Shown here: positions 1 through 10,261 of the stretch, one piece after another
Layout: each line of letters opens with the position of its first letter
How positions within the stretch are numbered: the first letter of the stretch is position 1
Assembly (NCBI GenBank): GCA_034660555.1
Contig: JAYEJL010000007.1
Span: 1 to 11,236 of the forward strand
Origin: Thermotogota bacterium
Lineage (GTDB): Bacteria; Thermotogota; Thermotogae; Petrotogales; Kosmotogaceae
DNA: 11,236 nucleotides
Reading direction: 5' to 3'
The notes under the pieces: model-generated
What the model was told of the DNA's origin: nothing
The model's database searches: none
Seen by the model: only the letters and a program-made list of their open reading frames with translations
Translations under genes and position numbers: made by a program

Positions 1-505
1 AACTAGATAACACAGTCCCTTCACTCTACTTCCATTACAAAAGTTTCATCGCTACTACAGACTGTTCCGCTCCTGTTCCTGGCATTGGTACTTTCACCTT
101 CGTAGGTCCTCCACTTATGGCTTTTCCCTTACATCCAGAAACAGGTTCCCAAGTTCCTAATCAGAGCCTGTACCAGGGTCACGCCACCTCTATGCCGGCC
201 ACCATCTGGACAGTAAACAGGTTTCTTCCAGACTTATCCCTGGATAGTCTAGCCTCCAGGTTTTGATGACAGCAATGGGTTTTACGACACGTTCACGGTG
301 ATTCACTTGTATTTGTCTCCTCTGGAACTTACCTGATAGGATCGTTGTCCTGCCTTTTCCGTAACGCTCATCACCATGGCTCTTTACCACAGCAGCTTAC
401 GGTGTTTGAAACCTTCACCTGCATGACGACTTCGAGGGGACCTCCCTCATCTCCGATTAAGCACGGCTCGAAAGAAAAGTTCTCTTTCTTGTCTTCTTGG
501 CACAC
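1..505 (-). mobile_element. Group II intron, 5' portion (domains I to ~III), probably subgroup IIB / bacterial class D; RT ORF and 3' end expected left of the window
   Basis: The minus strand begins GTGTG (GUGYG consensus) at 505. It carries recognisable ribozyme segments: ...GGTGGCCGGCATAGAGGTGGCGTGACC..., GGAACTTGGGAACCTG, and GCGGAACAGTCTGTAGTAGCGATGAAACTTTTGTAATGGAAGTAGAGTGAAGGGACTG (DII/DIII region). Hairpin 239-260 (CCTGGA/TCCAGG, 10-nt loop) is a candidate EBS1 stem-loop. The class call is from memory of RmInt1-like introns. Confidence 0.9.
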
Positions 506-517
506 GACCAAGTGAAA

Positions 518-604
518 CGTTGGACGTTATTTCCCTTCATTCCAAAAAGCTTCTAATACCAATAAACAGCTGGATAGAATGTTGTCAAAAAAAGAGTCTG
601 TCAC
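518..604 (-). repeat. Left arm of 87/88-bp inverted repeat (partner 2773-2860)
   Basis: The reverse complement aligns to 2773-2860 with about 5 differences; the outer 53 nt are identical. Confidence 0.95.
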
Positions 605-813
605 GGGGTCCTGACTTTTGTCGAGACGCCGCAGTAGGACGGCACATTCGGTGCGCGTGGAGTGGCTAAACACCCCATGATCACGGTGAATTCTGCTATA
701 GGTAATGCCATATTTGATGCTTTAGGTATCGATATTATGGAACACCTATAACCTCTGAAAGGATATGGAGGGCAATTCAGGATAAAAAACCAGAGATGAA
801 GCATGAATTTTGA
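605..813 (+). pseudogene. C-terminal remnant of a xanthine dehydrogenase-family molybdopterin-binding subunit
   Basis: Translates as GVLTFVETPQ*DGTFGARGVAKHPMITVNSAIGNAIFDALGIDIME, then after a frameshift near 744 PITSERIWRAIQDKKPEMKHEF*. This matches the GPFGAKGxGE...AIxNAIxDAxG...PITPERI C-terminus of Mo-hydroxylases. In-frame TAG at 635-637; 5' end cut at the inverted repeat. Confidence 0.85.
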
Positions 814-943
814 AACACAAAACTATCAAGGTTTGCAGGAATAGCAAAATAAAAACTTTTCGTGCTTTTTCCGCATGAAATCGTGAAAGATATAGGATTT
901 GGAGCATTTTTGATTCTTCACCTCTGTAAAAAACTGCAGGCTC

Positions 944-971
944 TTGACAAAAAATAGAACTTCTGTAAAGT
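944..971 (+). promoter_or_regulatory. Possible sigma70-type promoter for the permease
   Basis: TTGACA (944-949), 16-nt spacer, TAAAGT (966-971). The -10 box is weak. Confidence 0.3.
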
Positions 972-1055
972 CGGAAGGAGGCTAAGCGAAAATAATTTTA
1001 CAGCCTTAAGATTACAGTTATAGCATTAAGATAACATTTGGAAGGAGGAATTGCA

Positions 1056-2291
1056 ATGACAGACGGTCAAACAAGTGTTGGAAAACAGATAAAGGGGGTG
1101 ATAAGGCCCGGGGACCTTCTGCCCGTTCACCAGCTTTTGATTTTGGGGCTTCAACACACCTTTACCATGTTCGGAGCAACGATACTGGTGCCTATCCTAA
1201 CAGGTTTGAATGTTGGTGTGGCCCTATTTACAGCCGGAATCGGGACATTATGGTTCCACCTTGTTACTAAAAGGAAGATTCCAGTTTTTCTTGGTTCGTC
1301 ATTTGCCTTTATAGCTCCTGTGGCCCTGGTAGTGGAAAAGTGGGGTATCCCTGCAGCACAGGGTGGAATAATAGTAGCGGGTATGATATACTGTGTAATT
1401 TCAATACCGATATACTATTTAGGGACTAAATTCTTAGAAACCCTTTTGCCTCCGGTGGTAACGGGGCCGATAATAATGGTGATAGGCCTTAATCTTGCCC
1501 CTGTAGCCATCGGTAGTGCCAGCGAGAACTGGATAATTGCCATTATCGTTTTAATTACAGTAGTCATCGTTAATATTTATGTAAAGGGTTTCTTCCGCTT
1601 GATTCCGGTACTAATAGGTTTATTGGTGGGATATATAGTATCGCTGATAGCGGGGATAGTAGATCTTACACCTGTTAAAGAAGCGGCAGTATTAGCGATG
1701 CCCAATTTTACCTGGCCTGTTTTTAATGCCGCTGCTATCGGCCTGATTGCCCCTGTGGCACTTGCTACTATAGTGGAGCACGTAGGGGATGTTCTGGCCG
1801 TAGAGGCTACCGTTGAGCAGGACTTTATAAAGGATCCGGGCCTCCACAGGACGATGATCGGAGACGGTATAGCTACATCTTTGGCTGCTCTCTTTGGCGG
1901 ACCTGCCAATACCACTTATTCTGAGAATACAGGGGTTTTAGCGCTTACTAAGGTGTGGAAGCCGGAAGTTATGCAGATAGCAGCCCTGATGGCCATAGCT
2001 TTTTCATTTGTTGAGAAACTGGGGGTAGCTATAAGGACCATACCGGCACCGGTAATTGGCGGTATTTCAATAGTGCTGTTCGGAATGATAGCCAGCATAG
2101 GGCTAAGGACCGTTGTCGAAAACAGTGTGGATTTTAAACAGTCCCGAAACCTCATTATCTCCAGTGTAATTCTGGTTATCGGTATAGGGGGAGCGGTTCT
2201 TAGATTATGGGGCAATGTGCAGCTCGGCGGTGTGGGCCTGGCAGCAATTATCGGAATAATATTAAATCAAGTTCTGCCTAAAGAGAGTTAA
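1056..2291 (+). CDS. uraA: NCS2/NAT-family nucleobase:cation symporter, uracil permease (UraA/PyrP) clade
   Basis: Motifs GLQHTFTMFGAT, FLGSSFAFI, EHVGD, GDGIAT, GGPANTTYSENTGVLALTK and many hydrophobic helices. ATG 1056 has the AGGAGG RBS just upstream and is preferred over TTG 1038. Confidence 0.92.
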   Translation: MTDGQTSVGKQIKGVIRPGDLLPVHQLLILGLQHTFTMFGATILVPILTGLNVGVALFTAGIGTLWFHLVTKRKIPVFLGSSFAFIAPVALVVEKWGIPAAQGGIIVAGMIYCVISIPIYYLGTKFLETLLPPVVTGPIIMVIGLNLAPVAIGSASENWIIAIIVLITVVIVNIYVKGFFRLIPVLIGLLVGYIVSLIAGIVDLTPVKEAAVLAMPNFTWPVFNAAAIGLIAPVALATIVEHVGDVLAVEATVEQDFIKDPGLHRTMIGDGIATSLAALFGGPANTTYSENTGVLALTKVWKPEVMQIAALMAIAFSFVEKLGVAIRTIPAPVIGGISIVLFGMIASIGLRTVVENSVDFKQSRNLIISSVILVIGIGGAVLRLWGNVQLGGVGLAAIIGIILNQVLPKES

Positions 2292-2297
2292 AAGCTT

Positions 2298-2321
2298 ACA
2301 GGTGGGGGGTTCCCCACCTGT
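2298..2321 (+). terminator. Hairpin directly after the permease stop codon, probable terminator
   Basis: ACAGGTGGGG-GGTT-CCCCACCTGT, a perfect 10-bp stem; the U tract is poor. Confidence 0.65.
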
Positions 2322-2426
2322 TACCTATTTCGTTCAGCAGTTTTAAATAGAACCTAAAATAGCCTGACGCTAAAACGGGACAAGTTCTGTGGTTGTGAAT
2401 AGCTGCATGAGAAAGGGGGGATTGGT

Positions 2427-2600
2427 TTGGAATTATGGGAAGCGCTCAATCTTAAAAACAGCGGATTGATCTCTGCAGTAGGTGGAGGTGGCAAGACAGT
2501 ACTGAGTTTCAGCCTTGCACGGGAACTCAAAGCTCAGGGCAACAACTTCTGGGACAAACTCGTGTATCCAGGAAAGTCAAGTACATTCAGAGGGAGATAA
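2427..2600 (+). pseudogene. yqeC: N-terminal remnant of YqeC-like selenium-dependent Mo-hydroxylase accessory protein
   Basis: AAGGGGGG RBS and TTG start; MELWEALNLKNSGLISAVGGGGKTVLSFSLARELKAQG resembles the YqeC N-terminal P-loop (ISxVGxGGKT...LAxEL). Similarity ends near 2545 and the frame stops at 2600. The neighbouring xdh remnant fits this call. Confidence 0.75.
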
Positions 2601-2772
2601 ACCCACCAAGGTAAAAGCCAAAATCTTGTAGCTAGGTCAGTAAGGGGGGGAAGGAAACTGGACTCTTGAAGCCTGATGACAAAGCCATCATAAGGGTGGT
2701 GGGCGAGTATCTGGACCGTAAGGAACAAGTGAACGCATAGGTAGCCTCGATACCCAAAACTCTGTGGGAAAA
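2562..2772 (+). mobile_element. Degenerate 5' fragment (domain I) of a second, different group II intron
   Basis: GTGTA start, then GCTAGGTCAGT...GAAGCCTGATGACAAAG...GGCGAGTATCTGGACCGTAAGGAACAAGTGAACGC...AGCCTCGA, a motif order I recognise from group II domain I. The 5' end deviates from GUGYG; no DV or RT is present; it ends at the inverted repeat. Confidence 0.55.
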
Positions 2773-2860
2773 GTGACAGACTCCATTTTTTTACAACATT
2801 TTATCCGGCTGTTTATTGGTATTAGAAGCTTTTTGGAATGAAGGGAAATAACGTCCAACG
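2773..2860 (+). repeat. Right arm of 87/88-bp inverted repeat (partner 518-604)
   Basis: GTGACAGACTC...GGAATGAAGGGAAATAACGTCCAACG is the reverse complement of 518-604. Confidence 0.95.
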
Positions 2861-3240
2861 CTGACGTTTTGTCCAACGTTGACACTTCCTCCAACGCTCG
2901 TCTTGCAACTCGCTTCGTCCAACGATTGGAGCAAGAACAATGATATGCGCGTTAAAGGGCAAGCGGATTTGCTCCAAAAAACGAACGGATATGCTGATCT
3001 ATGATCAGGATATGCGAATCTGACGATTCGGGTATGAGCTTCGCGGATGAAGACCAAAAGCACACACCTCCACGCTAACACGGGACTCCTTTCTAGAGGG
3101 CATTAGAACCAATCGGTTCATGTGTTTTATTATTTATGGTATTTTTCTCGGTTCTCGAATTCTCAAACTTTCGTTTTGCATTTTTAGGTTTTTTTGAACT
3201 TCCGTACAACGTACAACCTACTGACGCACAACGTGTTTTT
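2853..3240. repeat. Intergenic repeat mosaic A (REP/BIME-like)
   Basis: Modules: GTCCAACG array (2853, 2871, 2889 variant, 2917); GGATATGC array (2941-3052); ACACACCTC...GAGGG (3062-3100); CGGTTCA...TTATTTATGGT (~3114-3140); CTCGGTTCTCGAAT (3147-3160); TTTGAACTTCCGTACAACG...ACAACG (3192-3240). Each has a counterpart in 6771-7590. Confidence 0.85.
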
Positions 3241-4608
3241 CTAAATATGTATCTCCCTATCGTTTGCTTTTTCAAGTGCCCCCAAAACAGTCTCTGTTAA
3301 TGTTGGATGTGGATGTATCGATTCCATAAGTTGCAAGGTAGTTAGTTTATTTCTTACAGCGATTACACCTTCCATAATCATTTCAGTCGCATTAGGGGAA
3401 ACTATTGTAAGGCCAAGAACAGTGTCATCTTCTTCATCTGAAATAACCTTTGCAAAGCCTATTCTTTCTTCCATAGTTCTGGCTTTTCCAGTTGCAGAAA
3501 TGGGAAATTTTGATACCTTAATTTTTTCCTTTTCAACATCCTTTTCTCTTAAACCAACCGATGCAACTTCCGGGTTTGAAAATATCACAGAGGGAATTGC
3601 TGAGTAGTCCATTTTTGTATCTATTCCGGCGATGTTTTCTGCTGTAACTATTCCTTCATGCATCGCTGTATGTGCCAGCATGTACTTAGCTTTTATATCG
3701 CCGATAGCATAAACATTCTCTATATTTGTACACATATGATCGTCTGTAATAACGCCTTTGTCTATTTCAACACCGAGCGCTTTAATATCCTCTGTTATAG
3801 CAGGTTTTCTCCCCACAGCGAGTAAAACACTTTCTGTTTCTAATTCCTGTTGTTCGTCTTTTTCCTTATTCTTAATAGTTGAAGTGAATGTACCATTTTC
3901 CTTTTCAACAGTCGTTACTTCGGTTTTTTCTAATACTTTTACTCCCTTCCTTTTGAGTGATTTTTTGATATCTTCGGCAACATCTTTATCCTCTGTTGAA
4001 AGTATCTGATCAAGAACTTCAACAAGATTGACCTTCACTCCGAAGGAAGAAAAGAATGTAGCAAATTCAACTCCAATATATCCACCACCTATTATAAGAA
4101 TTGATTCAGGGAATTTTTCCATGCTAAAAACATCGTCGCTGGTCATAATGCCTTCGACATTTTCAAAAGGCGGAAAATTGGCTGGATTTGAGCCCTGAGC
4201 AAGGATCAAATTCTGTCCTTCAACAAATGCACCGTTCTCTTTAATTCTGATTTTTCCTTTATCTACTATTTCTGCTGTACCTTCAATAATTTCTACATTG
4301 TTCTCATTCAACAAATGTTCTATACCTTTACGGGATAGTGTAACTGCTTTTTTTGAGTGCTTCATTACTTTGCCTACATCGTAGCTGAGTTCTTCTGCAG
4401 TTACACCGAAACGTTTACCTTTATCATTCATTTCAGAATAAAGATGTGAAGCGTTCAACAAAGCTTTTGTAGGTATACAACCTACGTTGGTACAGGTACC
4501 TCCTAATTCATTTTTTTCAATAAGCACAACGTTTTTACCAAGTTTACTTAGCCTAATGGATACTACATAACCTCCTGGTCCTCCACCAATTATAATGACA
4601 TCATACAT
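3241..4608 (-). CDS. lpdA: Dihydrolipoamide dehydrogenase (E3 / glycine cleavage L protein)
   Basis: FAD motif GGGPGG, redox disulfide GGTCTNVGCIPTK, NAD motif GGGYIG, C-terminal HPHPTLTE; GAGGAGG RBS upstream. Confidence 0.97.
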   Translation of the reverse strand: MYDVIIIGGGPGGYVVSIRLSKLGKNVVLIEKNELGGTCTNVGCIPTKALLNASHLYSEMNDKGKRFGVTAEELSYDVGKVMKHSKKAVTLSRKGIEHLLNENNVEIIEGTAEIVDKGKIRIKENGAFVEGQNLILAQGSNPANFPPFENVEGIMTSDDVFSMEKFPESILIIGGGYIGVEFATFFSSFGVKVNLVEVLDQILSTEDKDVAEDIKKSLKRKGVKVLEKTEVTTVEKENGTFTSTIKNKEKDEQQELETESVLLAVGRKPAITEDIKALGVEIDKGVITDDHMCTNIENVYAIGDIKAKYMLAHTAMHEGIVTAENIAGIDTKMDYSAIPSVIFSNPEVASVGLREKDVEKEKIKVSKFPISATGKARTMEERIGFAKVISDEEDDTVLGLTIVSPNATEMIMEGVIAVRNKLTTLQLMESIHPHPTLTETVLGALEKANDREIHI

Positions 4609-5855: not shown

Positions 5856-6770
5856 ATGTTTCTTGATTACCCTGAAAAATCCTGGTCATTATCGAAGCAA
5901 AATGTCTTTGATGAGTGTAGAAGAAAATATTTCTTCAAAACATATGCTCACTGGAAAGGCTGGGAACAAAATGCATCAGAATTTACAAGAAAGGCATATC
6001 TTCTAAATAAACTGCAGAATATATATGCATTACTTGGTCAGGCAGTACATGACGAGGTCAAAAAGGCCATACTTAACAAGAAAATACAAAAAGCCTTATC
6101 CATTAAAGACATAAGGGAGAAACTGAATGAAGCGTGGAAAGATTCAATTAATAATAGAGCTGATTGGGAACGCTGGCCTAAGGAATTTACAATGCTTCAA
6201 GAAATATACTACGGTAACAAAAGCTTTCTAAGGCAAAATTCTTCTAAAATAACAAAAAGAGCTGAGATCTGTATAGAGAATTTTTCTGGTTCGGAAGTAT
6301 TCAAAAGAATAAAGAATAGCGAATTCCAGATATTAGAAGTTGATGAAGACTTCCCATCATTTAAGTACAATGGAGTTCGTGTTTTCTCGATCATTGATTT
6401 TCTTTACAAAACAAATAAAAATACTATTTACATAATTGATTGGAAAACAGGAAGACCCAATGAGGAAAAAGATAAGAGACAACTAAAATTATACACAATA
6501 TATGTGCTTGAAAAGTATAAAAACGCTGAACTTAGCAACATTAAATGTGTTAACGAATATCTGTTAACTGGAGATAGATCTGTTCACGAATTTAGTGAAA
6601 AGGAAATAGCAAATACAAAGAAATATATTGAAAAAAGTATCAGTGAAATAGATAAATACTGCGAAGATCCCCAACTAAATAAACCAAAAGACATCTCCTT
6701 TTTTGAGAAAAATCCTGGAAGACGCTGTAATTACTGTGAATTTCTTGAACTCTGTAAGGGAACTGAGTGA
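5856..6770 (+). CDS. PD-(D/E)XK nuclease, RecB/AddB/Cas4-like, with probable 4Fe-4S staple
   Basis: SLSK...C21-RRKYF, GQAVH, IIDFL, IIDWKTG, QLKLY and C-terminal C291-x2-C294-x5-C300. Confidence 0.9.
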   Translation: MFLDYPEKSWSLSKQNVFDECRRKYFFKTYAHWKGWEQNASEFTRKAYLLNKLQNIYALLGQAVHDEVKKAILNKKIQKALSIKDIREKLNEAWKDSINNRADWERWPKEFTMLQEIYYGNKSFLRQNSSKITKRAEICIENFSGSEVFKRIKNSEFQILEVDEDFPSFKYNGVRVFSIIDFLYKTNKNTIYIIDWKTGRPNEEKDKRQLKLYTIYVLEKYKNAELSNIKCVNEYLLTGDRSVHEFSEKEIANTKKYIEKSISEIDKYCEDPQLNKPKDISFFEKNPGRRCNYCEFLELCKGTE

Positions 6771-7590
6771 TCCTAAGAAAGCGAGAATCCGAGAAGATTC
6801 GAAGAAACGAGAAACCGAGAAAGAACAAAAAAATGGTTAAATAAAGAGAATAGAGCCCCCGACTAATCTTTCATTTTTAAAAACGAGAATTAGAGAGTGT
6901 GATAAAACAACAAAAAATAAGAACCGATAATCCCTAGATTTAATTTTAAAGCTACTGTGCACAAGTGCGCTTAAAGAAACACACCTCACCACTTCGTGGT
7001 CCCCTCCTCTCAAATAGAGGAGATTCTAAAACATATAAACCAAAATGCGGTTTTTATCCTGAACTCTTATATTTGAACTTTCCAAACAACGCACAAACTA
7101 CTATCGTACAACGTTTTTTATTAATGGTTTTAGTCGGATCTCTGATCTCGGTTCTCGAATCTCGATTTTAATTTTAGATTCCACCCTTGAGGGTGGCCAG
7201 CTGTACCTAGCTGGGGGTGTAGATTTTTAATTTTATCTGCAAAGCGCATATCCAAGCGCAGCTCGCACATCCTGAGCTTCGCTCAGCATATCCGATTGCT
7301 TTACAAATCGCATATCAATGTTTTGTCTTTTGTACTTCCGAACAACCTACAACCAACAACCGACAACGTTTTCTTGATTTTTATCGTCGATTGACGAAGC
7401 GCCGCGTTCAGCAAGCGTTAGACGAAACGTCAGTGCTGGACGACTAGACGTGTTTTTCGAACCTGTCGGTTCACGTCTATTGTTATTTATGGTGGTTTTC
7501 GTCGAGTCTCGGGGTTTAGTTCGATGGACCAAGTGGAACGTTTGACTTTCTTTTAGTCTCGCTTTCTCGTCAACTGGGTTCTTCTCGTTT
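6771..7590. repeat. Intergenic repeat mosaic B (REP/BIME-like)
   Basis: Modules: CGAGA runs (6782-6820; inverted 7557-7590); double hairpins 6979-7022 and 7181-7220; CAAC modules ~7072-7119 and ~7329-7372; CTCGGTTCTCGAAT 7147-7160; GCATATCC array 7239-7317; inverted GTCCAACG module 7388-7442; CGGTTCA...TTATTTATGGT ~7467-7494; intron-target-like 20-mer 7527-7546. Confidence 0.85.
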
Positions 7591-7768
7591 TCTATATGAG
7601 CTTATCTCAATTTTTAATTTGTTTCACGTGATTTTATTTTTCGAATTGTTTTGTTGTTTATTAAAATTTCGTGCTATTATTTGAGAGTAATAGTCTGTGA
7701 TTTTACTTTGACCTTTATTACAATAACTAGGATGTTAAAAAAGTTGCAGTCTAGAGGGGGCAAACATT

Positions 7769-10261
7769 ATGAAGAGAATTTCACTTTTCATACTTACAGG
7801 TTTGTTAGTAATCTTTCTGTTAACTGCATGCCCACCAAAGGAAATATTGTATCTAAATATAGAAATTGAAACTACAGAAGATGCTTCAGGATCAGTTTAC
7901 CCCTTTGAAGGGGAATATCTTTATTATGAAGGTATGACACAAGAAATTATTGCAGCTCCTTCTGAAAGCTCAGTTTTTGAAAGATGGATAATAGATGGTA
8001 TTGAAGAAACAAAGGCATCGACGACAATAACAATAAATAAAAGTCTTACAGCTACTGCTTACTTTGAAAATGCAGAACCACCTGGAGTTAAATATACATT
8101 GACTGTTTTAAAATCTCAAGGAGAGGGAGAGATAGAACTTGCTTCAGGAACTTATGAATATGCTGAAAATTCAGTAATTTCATTAACCGCGACTCCAGCT
8201 GATGGATGGGAGTTCGTCAAGTGGGAAGTGGATGGAACCGAATACTCTACTGAAGACTCAACTACCTTGATCATGGATGCAGACAAAGAAGTAAGTGCCT
8301 ACTTTGAAGAAATCTCCCCAGAAGAATATACATTGTTCATGCTCGAACCTGAGGGTGAAGGAGATACATCGCCTACTTCTCCAGGAACCTACACATATGA
8401 AGAAGAGATTGAAATTATATTATCCGCTACTCCAACTGATGGATGGAAGTTCATTAAATGGGAAGTGAACGGAGAATTTTATTCCAGCCGTGAATCTGCG
8501 ACTTTACTTATGAACTCTAATAAAGAAGTGAAAGTATTTTTTTCGAATGATAGTGAGGGTTATATATTAACTACAATAGTTGAGGGCGATGGAAGGATAA
8601 AAATTGAACCAGAAAAAAACACATATTCCCAGGGAGAAATAGTTGAACTTGAAGCAATTCCTGATAACTGTTCTAGTTTTGTTAAATGGGACGGAGACAT
8701 TATTTCTGAAAAAGAGAAAATCGAACTGATAATGGATAATGATAAGATTGTTTACGCTGCTTTTAAAGAGAACGATAAACCTCCATCTGTAGAAATTATT
8801 TCACCTCAACCAGTACCAGAATATGTTAATGATTTATCTAAGGAATTTGAGTTTGCTTTCTCCCCCAGTAATGAAGGAGTAAATTTACATAAAATTTCTG
8901 CAGAAATATGTTCTGATAATTGGACATTTAACTCTAATATTTATGATAATGTTGGTCGGGGTGAACTTGTTTTGAGTTTTGATCAAGACAAAGTTATTGA
9001 TTGTGAAACATATTATGCAACTATTACTGTAGAAGATTGTTGTGGTAATGTAGCCTCAAAGCAAATTAATCTTACAATAGACAATATACTACCCAAACTG
9101 GATTTTTCAGTATGCGCTTTTAAAAATGAAAACAATTTTGTGGAAACGACTCTTTCCTGGACAGCCACAGACACTTGTTTTGATAAAATAAGAATCGAAG
9201 TAAATAAAGGAACCACTACTGAAACTTATACATTTGTCAATAAAGGTAACACAAAATGGATTATTCCTGTTGATGAACTAAACGAAGAAAATCTGGTTGT
9301 TAGAGCCACAGCTTACGATAAAGCAGGAAATACAGAGACTGTTTCAAGGACAATACCAGTCAGGAAACTATCAATGAGGGTAAATTCAGAAAATGCCGGG
9401 AGTGTTTCTCCAGCTCCGGGTGATCATTACTATCCATCATCAGTAAGAATTGGCTTATCTGCAGTACCAGATACAGAATACGCCTTTGATAAATGGATAG
9501 CCACAGCAGGTTCATTTGAAGACGAAGCTTCTGCTGAAACCAAATATTTGATGCCCGATCAAAATGCAACAATTACGGCAAATTTTACTCCTATTTGGAA
9601 AGGCTTTACTGAAAATCAATCAATTCTGCAACAGACAGCAAATGTTTCAGTTAATAAACCTCCTGGAGTTGAAACAGGAGATATGATAATTGTAATTCTT
9701 CACACAGATAACAGGATAGATGATAAATGGGCGAATGATCCATCATCTTTACAGGGTTTCTCAATTATCGGGCATTCCACTAATGAAAGCGACTATGAAA
9801 GACCAACAGTATCTGCAGCTTACAAAATAGCAGGAGAAAATGAACCAGCTTCATATTCCTTCGAAATTTCTGAAGAGATGCATTGGTATATTACTGCCAT
9901 ATGTATTAATAAATTTAATGGCATTGGGACAATTATTAGAAAAACTTCAGGAGAACAATCAGTGGAATCAATAACCTTTGATAATTTAACTACTTCAGAT
10001 AAATCATTAATAATTGCTGCAATAACTCAAAGACGTTCCACTGATTCAGATTATAATGCAAGATCCATAGTGCCTCCTCAAGGTATGAAAGAAAGGTACT
10101 CTTATTATTCATTCGAAACATTTGGAGAAGATGGTAAACCCAATGCATCTGGCGCTTCAAAATTAATGAAACCCGGACAAATTATTAAATCACCAACCTA
10201 CAGTTGGGATTATACTGGCAGAGCTGCCGGTATAATGTTTGAAATTATTCTCAACGACTAA
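7769..10261 (+). CDS. Surface lipoprotein with multiple divergent InlB-B-repeat-like domains, Ig-like segments and a distinct C-terminal domain
   Basis: Signal peptide with LTAC lipobox. Five repeats of the type YTLT...GxG...G.Y.Y......L.A.P..G..F.KW...........M.....V.A.F, acidic and beta-rich. TVEDCCGN and TAYDKAGN Ig-like turns. GAGGGGG RBS. Confidence 0.85.
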   Translation: MKRISLFILTGLLVIFLLTACPPKEILYLNIEIETTEDASGSVYPFEGEYLYYEGMTQEIIAAPSESSVFERWIIDGIEETKASTTITINKSLTATAYFENAEPPGVKYTLTVLKSQGEGEIELASGTYEYAENSVISLTATPADGWEFVKWEVDGTEYSTEDSTTLIMDADKEVSAYFEEISPEEYTLFMLEPEGEGDTSPTSPGTYTYEEEIEIILSATPTDGWKFIKWEVNGEFYSSRESATLLMNSNKEVKVFFSNDSEGYILTTIVEGDGRIKIEPEKNTYSQGEIVELEAIPDNCSSFVKWDGDIISEKEKIELIMDNDKIVYAAFKENDKPPSVEIISPQPVPEYVNDLSKEFEFAFSPSNEGVNLHKISAEICSDNWTFNSNIYDNVGRGELVLSFDQDKVIDCETYYATITVEDCCGNVASKQINLTIDNILPKLDFSVCAFKNENNFVETTLSWTATDTCFDKIRIEVNKGTTTETYTFVNKGNTKWIIPVDELNEENLVVRATAYDKAGNTETVSRTIPVRKLSMRVNSENAGSVSPAPGDHYYPSSVRIGLSAVPDTEYAFDKWIATAGSFEDEASAETKYLMPDQNATITANFTPIWKGFTENQSILQQTANVSVNKPPGVETGDMIIVILHTDNRIDDKWANDPSSLQGFSIIGHSTNESDYERPTVSAAYKIAGENEPASYSFEISEEMHWYITAICINKFNGIGTIIRKTSGEQSVESITFDNLTTSDKSLIIAAITQRRSTDSDYNARSIVPPQGMKERYSYYSFETFGEDGKPNASGASKLMKPGQIIKSPTYSWDYTGRAAGIMFEIILND

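Follow-up and report, generated by a model that had tools for sequence, protein, structure and literature searches.

Small group II introns without a protein gene at junctions of dispersed intergenic repeats in a Thermotogota genome

The stretch of DNA analysed here (the window) takes up positions 1-11,236 of contig C7 in an assembly of 2.1 Mb and 188 contigs, and it opens inside a group II intron that is read on the minus strand. The account in which we have good confidence is that the genome holds at least five ORF-less, IIB-like copies of this intron, each located exactly at the ...NNGTC↓CATCG... junction of intergenic repeats (the arrow marks the splice junction throughout), and that these sites were targeted mainly via EBS1, the loop of the 239-260 hairpin pairing with 5-7 nt at the end of the 5' exon, most likely by retrohoming with a protein provided in trans. 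In this mechanism, pairing of the EBS1 loop with the exon end, joined in relatives by pairing of EBS2, would be followed by reverse splicing of the intron into DNA at the repeat junction, and reverse transcription by an endonuclease-less protein would then complete the insertion. The protein would be of the kind that is still encoded by the full-length relatives of about 1.9 kb in a sister genus, and the insertion sites would presumably be neutral. The case offers a clean natural example of several retunings of a guide loop, to variant forms of a repeat dispersed between genes, with filled and empty paralogous sites that set the boundaries to the base. It also bears on the persistence of ORF-less introns and on the repeat mosaics that fill long intergenic regions.

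Identity, copies and boundaries of the intron

The first-pass annotation had proposed a group II intron with pairings of the IIB type; the group II identity holds, as do the positions of all the strings that it named. In an Rfam search, the model RF01999 (group-II-D1D4-2) matched 331-448(-) with 101 bits (E 2.3e-20; gathering score 36), and a search of positions 1-3300 with a permissive E-value gave nothing further for this intron. The consensus fold of the D1 alignments agrees with the group II D1 core, and its D1 arm has an IIB-like layout. On the minus strand, the junction of the window copy reads ...CGTTTCACTTGGTC↓GTGTGCC, or in a longer reading ...AAAUAACGUCCAACGUUUCACUUGGUC↓GUGUGCCAAGAAG..., and the GUGUG start is kept in most copies, with the variants AUGUG, GUGCG, GUAUG and UUGUG also present. 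This junction is spanned without differences (482-547, 0 differences) by a unitig from a public sequencing run, which may be the assembly's own source sample, and a 314-nt unitig of the public DNA run X3 reaches 103 nt beyond window position 1; the comparison covered four DNA runs of a single study, as short unitigs only. When positions 1-1100 were scanned, no sigma-70 promoter-like site turned up ahead of the intron on its own (minus) strand, and the number of terminators was 0. The contig ends at intron nt 505 of the window copy, ahead of D5/D6, and positions 1-505(-) would correspond to the 5' two-thirds of one small IIB-like intron copy without a protein gene, with D4-D6, the loss of the ORF and the 3' exon read from paralogs. 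The features of the window that are discussed below are collected in Table 1.

Table 1. Positions in the window of the intron features and of the target sequences.
Feature	Position	Strand	Remarks
Group II intron, first 505 nt	1..505	(-)	nt 1 = plus 505; runs off the contig start
GUGUG 5' splice-site consensus	501..505	(-)	direct reading; fits the GUGYG start of group II introns
Conserved D1 core	331..448	(-)	Rfam group-II-D1D4-2 match
Near-invariant internal loop GUGAAC	291..296	(-)	alignment A1 columns 30-35; 'EBS2' of the first-pass annotation
Hypervariable 10 nt AACCCAUUGC, putative EBS2 position by homology	272..281	(-)	within a 14-nt internal loop, alignment A1 columns 42-55
EBS1 hairpin	239..260	(-)	loop GGCUAGACUA at 254-245; candidate registers GGCUAG (254-249) and GACUA (249-245)
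IBS1, (C)UUGGUC, end of the 5' exon (5-7 nt)	506..512	(-)	pairs with loop 245-254
Rest of the 5' exon, repeat 'head' module	513..607	(-)	ends ...AAAUAACGUCCAACG; sharp outer boundary at GACAGACUC
Empty paralogous target GUCAAACGUUCCACUUGGUC↓CAUCGA	7521..7546	(-)	junction between 7527 and 7526; 5' exon motif as in 506-523

BLAST searches of the assembly with the window copy returned four further 5' ends, on contigs C23 (94.1% identity), C58 (90.2%), C159 (89.1%) and C100 (87.9%), and one 3' part on contig C22, which is 96% identical to the window copy across a short overlap and holds the sole D5/D6 match in the assembly (RF00029, 50 bits, compared with 53.5-55.1 bits in relatives). The genome count is at least five diverged 5' ends, with copies that differ by 6-12%, and one 3' end. 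Every one of these copies meets a contig end, and therefore the 3' halves have been collapsed by the assembler; for annotation, this means that such introns break assemblies. Contig C23 contains intron nt 1-632, of which nt 323-632 overlap C22 at 98.4% identity across 310 nt. The overlap is followed immediately by D5, and the intron ends with ...CUUAAC at position 3985 of C22. Together, the two overlapping copies give a length of 708 nt (632 + 76), and because D5 comes directly after the overlap, there is no room for an ORF. D4 is short in C23/C22 and does not contain the RT/maturase ORF that marks an autonomously mobile intron.

Searches of the assembly with RVT_1, GIIM and the protein of the relatives gave 0 matches each, although the absence of an RT is unproven in this 95.54% complete assembly, from which a short RT-bearing contig may be missing. 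RT/maturase genes are present in three of four other genomes of the same genus and are merely 33-37% identical to the protein of the relatives. Judged by sequence, the copies in this genome now look non-autonomous, and they are possibly fossil. It had been suggested that the intron homes into a repeat; its residence there was confirmed, but present activity finds no support in an assembly where no RT/maturase was found and the copies have diverged to this extent.

The exact boundaries are given by sites that occur both with and without the intron. The filled site on C159 reads ...CGTTTGGTC↓GTGTGCC (in RNA letters ...CGCCCAACACUGCGUUUGGUC↓GUGUGCC), and an empty paralog of the same site, located downstream of the C22 intron, reads ...CGTTTGGTC↓CATCTCC (...CGCCCAACACUGCGUUUGGUC↓CAUCUCCACCGUCCAUCGAC). 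The 3' end of the C22 intron itself is ...CTTAAC↓CATCGTCC, with CAUCGUCCACCGUCCAUCGAC as the 3' exon in RNA letters. These filled and empty paralogous sites fix both junctions, except for one base (C) that is common to the end of the exon and the end of the intron. The first base of the 3' exon is C in this genome and A or T in relatives.

Matching sequences were found in 16 of the 41 genomes searched (this assembly included), which belong to 4 of 12 genera. The closed 2.97-Mb genome of a sister-genus member has 14 matches, including three copies of about 1.9 kb that span the intron from end to end, two with an intact 411-aa ORF and one with a broken ORF. The ORF-bearing relatives are 85-86% identical to the intron and carry the ORF within D4. 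The encoded protein matches TIGR04416 with 434 bits, as well as RVT_1 and GIIM, and has no endonuclease domain; its best match among solved structures is the GsI-IIC RT (6ar1, E 5.6e-45). By tblastn, many plasmid-borne relatives of the protein were found at 55-63% identity; all of them bear just the annotation 'group II intron reverse transcriptase/maturase', and this is uninformative as to class. A complete ORF-less copy of about 690 nt is present in a further genome, and 28 more loci came from metagenome contigs scanned with a sequence pattern. On one metagenome contig, two introns of the family lie head to tail (at about 52-130), where the 5' exon of one consists of the last D6 bases of the other (...GGGCUACUCACC↓GUGUGCC). 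A 19-nt invariant intron word was also compared with a contig collection, and its five matches, all in unrelated organisms with about four expected by chance, were set aside; the collection apparently holds no relatives.

In the closed sister-genus genome, the minus strand of contig C1 carries 11 of the 14 matches, all within 1.70-2.96 Mb, and the plus strand carries the other three, at 0.89, 1.81 and 2.16 Mb. For introns with an endonuclease-less protein, an orientation bias linked to replication is expected. The strand skew may reflect such a bias relative to replication.

Pairing of the intron with the 5' exon

The hairpin at 239-260 is formed by a CCUGGA/UCCAGG stem around the loop GGCUAGACUA (-7.9 kcal/mol). 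In the consensus fold of 28 distinct arm sequences, the loop is found at the tip of the hairpin, where the window's own U-A pair replaces the G-C pair of the others, and the hairpin has been retained through compensatory changes (columns 69/87 and 71/85 of alignment A1). Copies for the pairing analysis were extracted by a regular expression on conserved anchors, which gave 47 matches, or 38 after exons of less than 20 nt had been dropped and duplicates collapsed; degenerate copies, truncated copies and copies cut by a contig end before the hairpin are not included in this count. The mean anchored EBS1 run in the 38 copies was 4.68 for cognate exons vs 3.20 for non-cognate or shuffled exons, and 0 of 5000 permutations reached the cognate mean, a figure that ignores kinship among the copies and is not to be read as a probability. 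Anchored runs of at least 5 were obtained for 18 of the 38 cognate pairs vs 204 of 1238 non-cognate pairs, and random exon ends reach a run of at least 5 with the loop of the window copy with P = 0.028. The run is shorter than 5 in 20 of the 38 copies. Some copies (at least three) fall short by a single internal mismatch, and in others (at least four) the loop is unrelated to its own exon. Many of the short-run copies are located on metagenome or draft contigs, in which flank and interior may derive from different copies (chimeric).

Seven EBS1 variants match their own exon. The loop UGCAAC(U) is found with the exon end (A)GUUGCA, UGGAAC with GUUCCA, CCUGGUU with AACCAGG, CUUAUA with UAUAAG, UGCUAC with GUGGCA, and GGCGAAG with CUUCGUC (C100), while GGCUAAG is found with CUUAGUC (C58) and also, via wobble pairs, with UUUGGUC (C159). 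The pairings CUUAGUC:GGCUAAG in C58 and CUUCGUC:GGCGAAG in C100 differ by a compensatory change. This covariation identifies the loop of the 239-260 hairpin as the EBS1 site, which is where the first-pass annotation had placed it.

The same annotation had specified the pairings as GACUA (249-245) with UGGUC for EBS1 and GUGAA (296-292) with UUCAC for EBS2. Both are present in the sequence, but taken together they are unlikely to be the pairings used. For EBS1, the hairpin loop stood and the exact register in the window copy is ambiguous, with GGCUAG (254-249) pairing with UUGGUC at -3.5 kcal/mol, including three G-U pairs, and GACUA (249-245) pairing with UGGUC about equally well at -3.3 kcal/mol. 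GACUA directly abuts the 3' side of the loop, the position that EBS1 has in C58, C100 and C159, and it would be a perfect complement to UAGUC, with which the C23 and C58 exons end, whereas the motif GGCUA(A)G that is common to the sister copies favours the other register. When the exon was compared with intron nt 186-275 using RNAduplex, the best duplex was CAAGUGAA:UUCACUUG; the segment involved is near-invariant in the family and clashes with EBS1, and the duplex was treated as a chance match.

For EBS2, the proposed GUGAA is not borne out. The motif is part of the 6-nt loop GUGAAC, between helices 25-29/140-144 and 36-41/131-136 (alignment A1 columns), and this loop is identical in 27 of the 28 aligned sequences even though the exons at -7 to -11 are unrelated. 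There are five GTGAA motifs within the 505 nt (at nt 88, 200, 210, 409 and 482), and the complementarity of GUGAA to UUCAC is real yet not above chance. In the IIB subclass, EBS2 is located in an internal loop, and a separate asymmetric internal loop, the coordination loop, lies 5' of EBS2. The layout of the fold from 28 sequences, with columns 30-35 and 137-139 followed by columns 42-55, is exactly that of the IIB definition; no EBS3-IBS3 or delta-delta' pairing was identified. By its position in this model GUGAAC looks like the coordination loop. EBS2 is predicted about 11-20 nt further 3', in the stretch that is variable among relatives. A structural model that puts EBS2 elsewhere had been named beforehand as a refuting result, and the fold of the arm came out against GUGAA as EBS2.

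In the sister-genus copies, nucleotides 1-5 of the variable loop pair with exon positions -10 to -14, as in CAACU:AGUUG, GAACU:AGUUC and GAUCU:GGAUC. The mean EBS2 score (out of 5) in these copies is 3.87 when intron and exon are cognate and 3.19 when they are not; a mean as high as the cognate one came up in 1 of 5000 permutations. For the five copies of the present genome, no EBS2 register does better than non-cognate combinations (best 19/25; 44 of 44 derangements as good), and a search for sites complementary to positions 272-281 of the window copy together with an IBS1-like word gave scattered matches only, none recognisably in repeat modules. The assignment of EBS2 to 272-281 is therefore a putative one, made by homology.

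Intergenic repeat modules as the target

All six flanks of the copies (five 5' and one 3') are repetitive in the genome, with 8, 20, 25, 3, 14 and 23 hits (self included), whereas more than one hit was obtained for only 8 of 200 random 120-mers. The common junction is CTT[C/G/A]GTC↓CATCG. Empty junction sites of the form CTT[CGA]GTCCATCG occur 19 times in the genome vs 0 times for the reversed control pattern. Fourteen of the 19 empty sites are located outside stop-free frames of at least 120 codons, which make up 88.9% of the genome, and two of the six occupied flank positions are inside such a frame. No transposase was found beside the window copy. These results agree with what had been read from the window alone, namely that a multicopy non-coding repeat, and no gene, is the host site and that it provides many landing sites; the comparison of flanks across all genomic copies, proposed at the same time as a check, gave the same picture. 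An empty site is also present in the window itself (7521-7546), where the CATCG that follows the junction is the sequence found after the 3' end of the intron in C22. The head module of the 5' exon is about 90 nt long and has an inverted partner at 2773-2860 (94-96% identity), which is one of five copies, on four contigs, that were aligned.

It could be argued that the copies arose without separate insertions, through segmental or repeat-driven duplication of a single repeat unit that already carried the intron. The flanks do belong to multicopy repeat families, no RT was found in the assembly, and the copies are old (6-12% apart), but the five 5' exons diverge within 10-20 nt of the junction and have different module contexts, EBS1 and IBS1 have changed together between C58 and C100, and a paralog that otherwise matches the C159 flank at 96% identity is empty. 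Duplication is on this evidence very unlikely, and separate insertions guided by EBS1 explain the copies better.

IIC ribozymes are about 400 nt in length. Targeting of the IIC kind, by a DNA hairpin (terminator- or REP-like) and a short IBS1 without EBS2 pairing, would fit the C100 site, which lies 6 nt after the strong hairpin GCTTGCC...GGCAAGC, the 7 of 19 empty sites with a full-length hairpin (-9.5 kcal/mol or stronger; three more have weaker, mismatched ones), the EBS2 pairing that is not demonstrable in this genome and the IIC RT as the best structural match of the relatives' protein, but it is highly improbable, because a strong hairpin is present at only one of the five occupied sites, and the 708-nt ribozyme, the EBS2-IBS2 covariation in relatives and the EBS2 internal loop in the D1 arm also speak against it.

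Alongside insertion guided by EBS1, a broader idea can be considered, which we regard as possible but rather doubtful: that this intron lineage is specialised on intergenic arrays with a period of about 7 nt in this bacterial family, that intron and arrays co-diversify with the arrays as landing pads, and that mobilisation in trans is still possible for the ORF-less copies. The exons of the sister-genus copies are arrays of NAGTTGN heptads, and the motif CAACUA is found there in both guides (EBS2 CAACUAC, EBS1 GCAACUAU), so that any two adjacent NAGTTGN heptads form a target. In the closed sister-genus genome, the word AGTTGNNNGTTGCA, which joins IBS2 and IBS1, is present at 12 places, compared with 0 for the control. 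Similar heptad arrays are present in the window at 3204-3237, 7081-7117 and 7331-7370, and 20 arrays of at least three NNGTT[GC]N units were counted, a number for which the control is uninformative (GTTG is the same when reversed). If the idea is correct, the loop would have been retuned in this genome to CTT[C/G]GTC↓CATCG, where the G and U variants of EBS1 match the C and the G/A variants of the repeat, respectively.

Several other features of the window were noted around these modules. The long intergenic regions 2861-3240 and 6771-7740 contain families of short-period words (CGAGAAN, NCGTCCA, NACAACN/GGTTGT heptads and GCATATC), which also flank other intron copies. A gene for a PD-(D/E)XK nuclease family protein (5856-6770, plus strand) and one for a protein of 830 aa that contains five divergent InlB B-repeat domains (7769-10261, plus strand) are located between repeat-filled spacers. 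At 638-751 (plus strand), a short open stretch with an in-frame stop upstream ends in ...AIGNAIFDALGIDIMEHL* and is cut off where the head module begins; it may be what remains of the C-terminal part of a gene of the xanthine dehydrogenase family. The N-terminal fragment LELWEALNLKNSGLISAVGGGGKTVLSFSLARELKAQGNN at 2427-2545 (plus strand), with a P-loop that presumably resembles that of a YqeC/XdhC-type accessory protein, breaks off at a second, unrelated group II intron fragment at 2588-2726 (plus strand; RF02003, group-II-D1D4-4, 89.5 bits), which has no D5 nearby. The latter fragment has the truncated gene start on one side and the inverted head module on the other, and a partial copy of it (92%) adjoins the same head module on contig C169. 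Positions 1-3100, which include the intron, a xanthine/uracil permease gene (1038-2291) and the gene remnants, have a G+C content of 44-46% vs 36.4% for the genome, and the first 3 kb or so of the window may be acquired DNA.

Comparison with known introns

RmInt1 of Sinorhizobium meliloti (class D) is a mobile IIB-like intron with a protein that lacks an endonuclease domain. Introns of this type have in common with the present family the GUGYG start, a terminal-loop EBS1, an EBS2 placed (by homology in the present genome) within an internal loop of the D1 d arm, a protein (about 410 aa in the relatives) with RT and maturase but no endonuclease domain, and residence in repeated, non-essential DNA. 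They differ in that the target here consists of short intergenic repeat modules and not of an insertion sequence, and in that the copies in this genome are ORF-less and a cognate RT was not found. One class D ORF from the Thermotogae is listed in the accessible part of PMC3552965.

ORF-less group II introns of bacteria and archaea are reportedly mobilised in trans, as Dai and Zimmerly in 2003 and Simon et al. in 2008 are said to have described. Mobilisation of ORF-less introns in trans is also the subject of the excerpted text of Mohr et al. 2010 (PMC2882425). The present introns resemble these in the short D4 without an ORF, the several diverged copies per genome and the existence of protein-encoding relatives, whereas the protein-encoding relatives belong here to another genus and not to the same genome. 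For the Thermotogae, the excerpt of the Mesotoga prima genome paper reports two group II introns with an RT, in 19 copies, of which several are located around an 80-kb duplication, and contains nothing on targets or ORF-less copies.

According to the available part of a review (PMC4424553), three target specificities are distinguished in bacteria, namely homing sites, terminators and attC sites, of which the latter two are used by class C (IIC) introns, inserted after terminator hairpins or at attC. The present introns are similar to IIC introns in their multicopy, non-coding and presumably neutral sites, one occupied and several empty ones of which follow a hairpin, and are unlike them in the larger ribozyme, the EBS2 of relatives and the hairpin-free majority of occupied sites; the small ribozyme, missing EBS2 and post-hairpin insertion that define IIC are not what was found. 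In the present case, the homing site coincides with a dispersed repeat. In Pseudomonas putida KT2440, two of nine group II intron copies are associated with REP elements, as given in the excerpt of PMC1525189; there, too, an intron resides in dispersed intergenic repeats, but this applies to a minority of the copies, while in the present genome repetitive flanks were found at each of the five 5' ends and at the single 3' end. A limited literature search found no group II introns that target such repeat arrays, and examples may still have been published. The general picture of group II intron function is unchanged: this is a known kind of retroelement with an ordinary mechanism, here in non-autonomous form, and it is the target that is uncommon.
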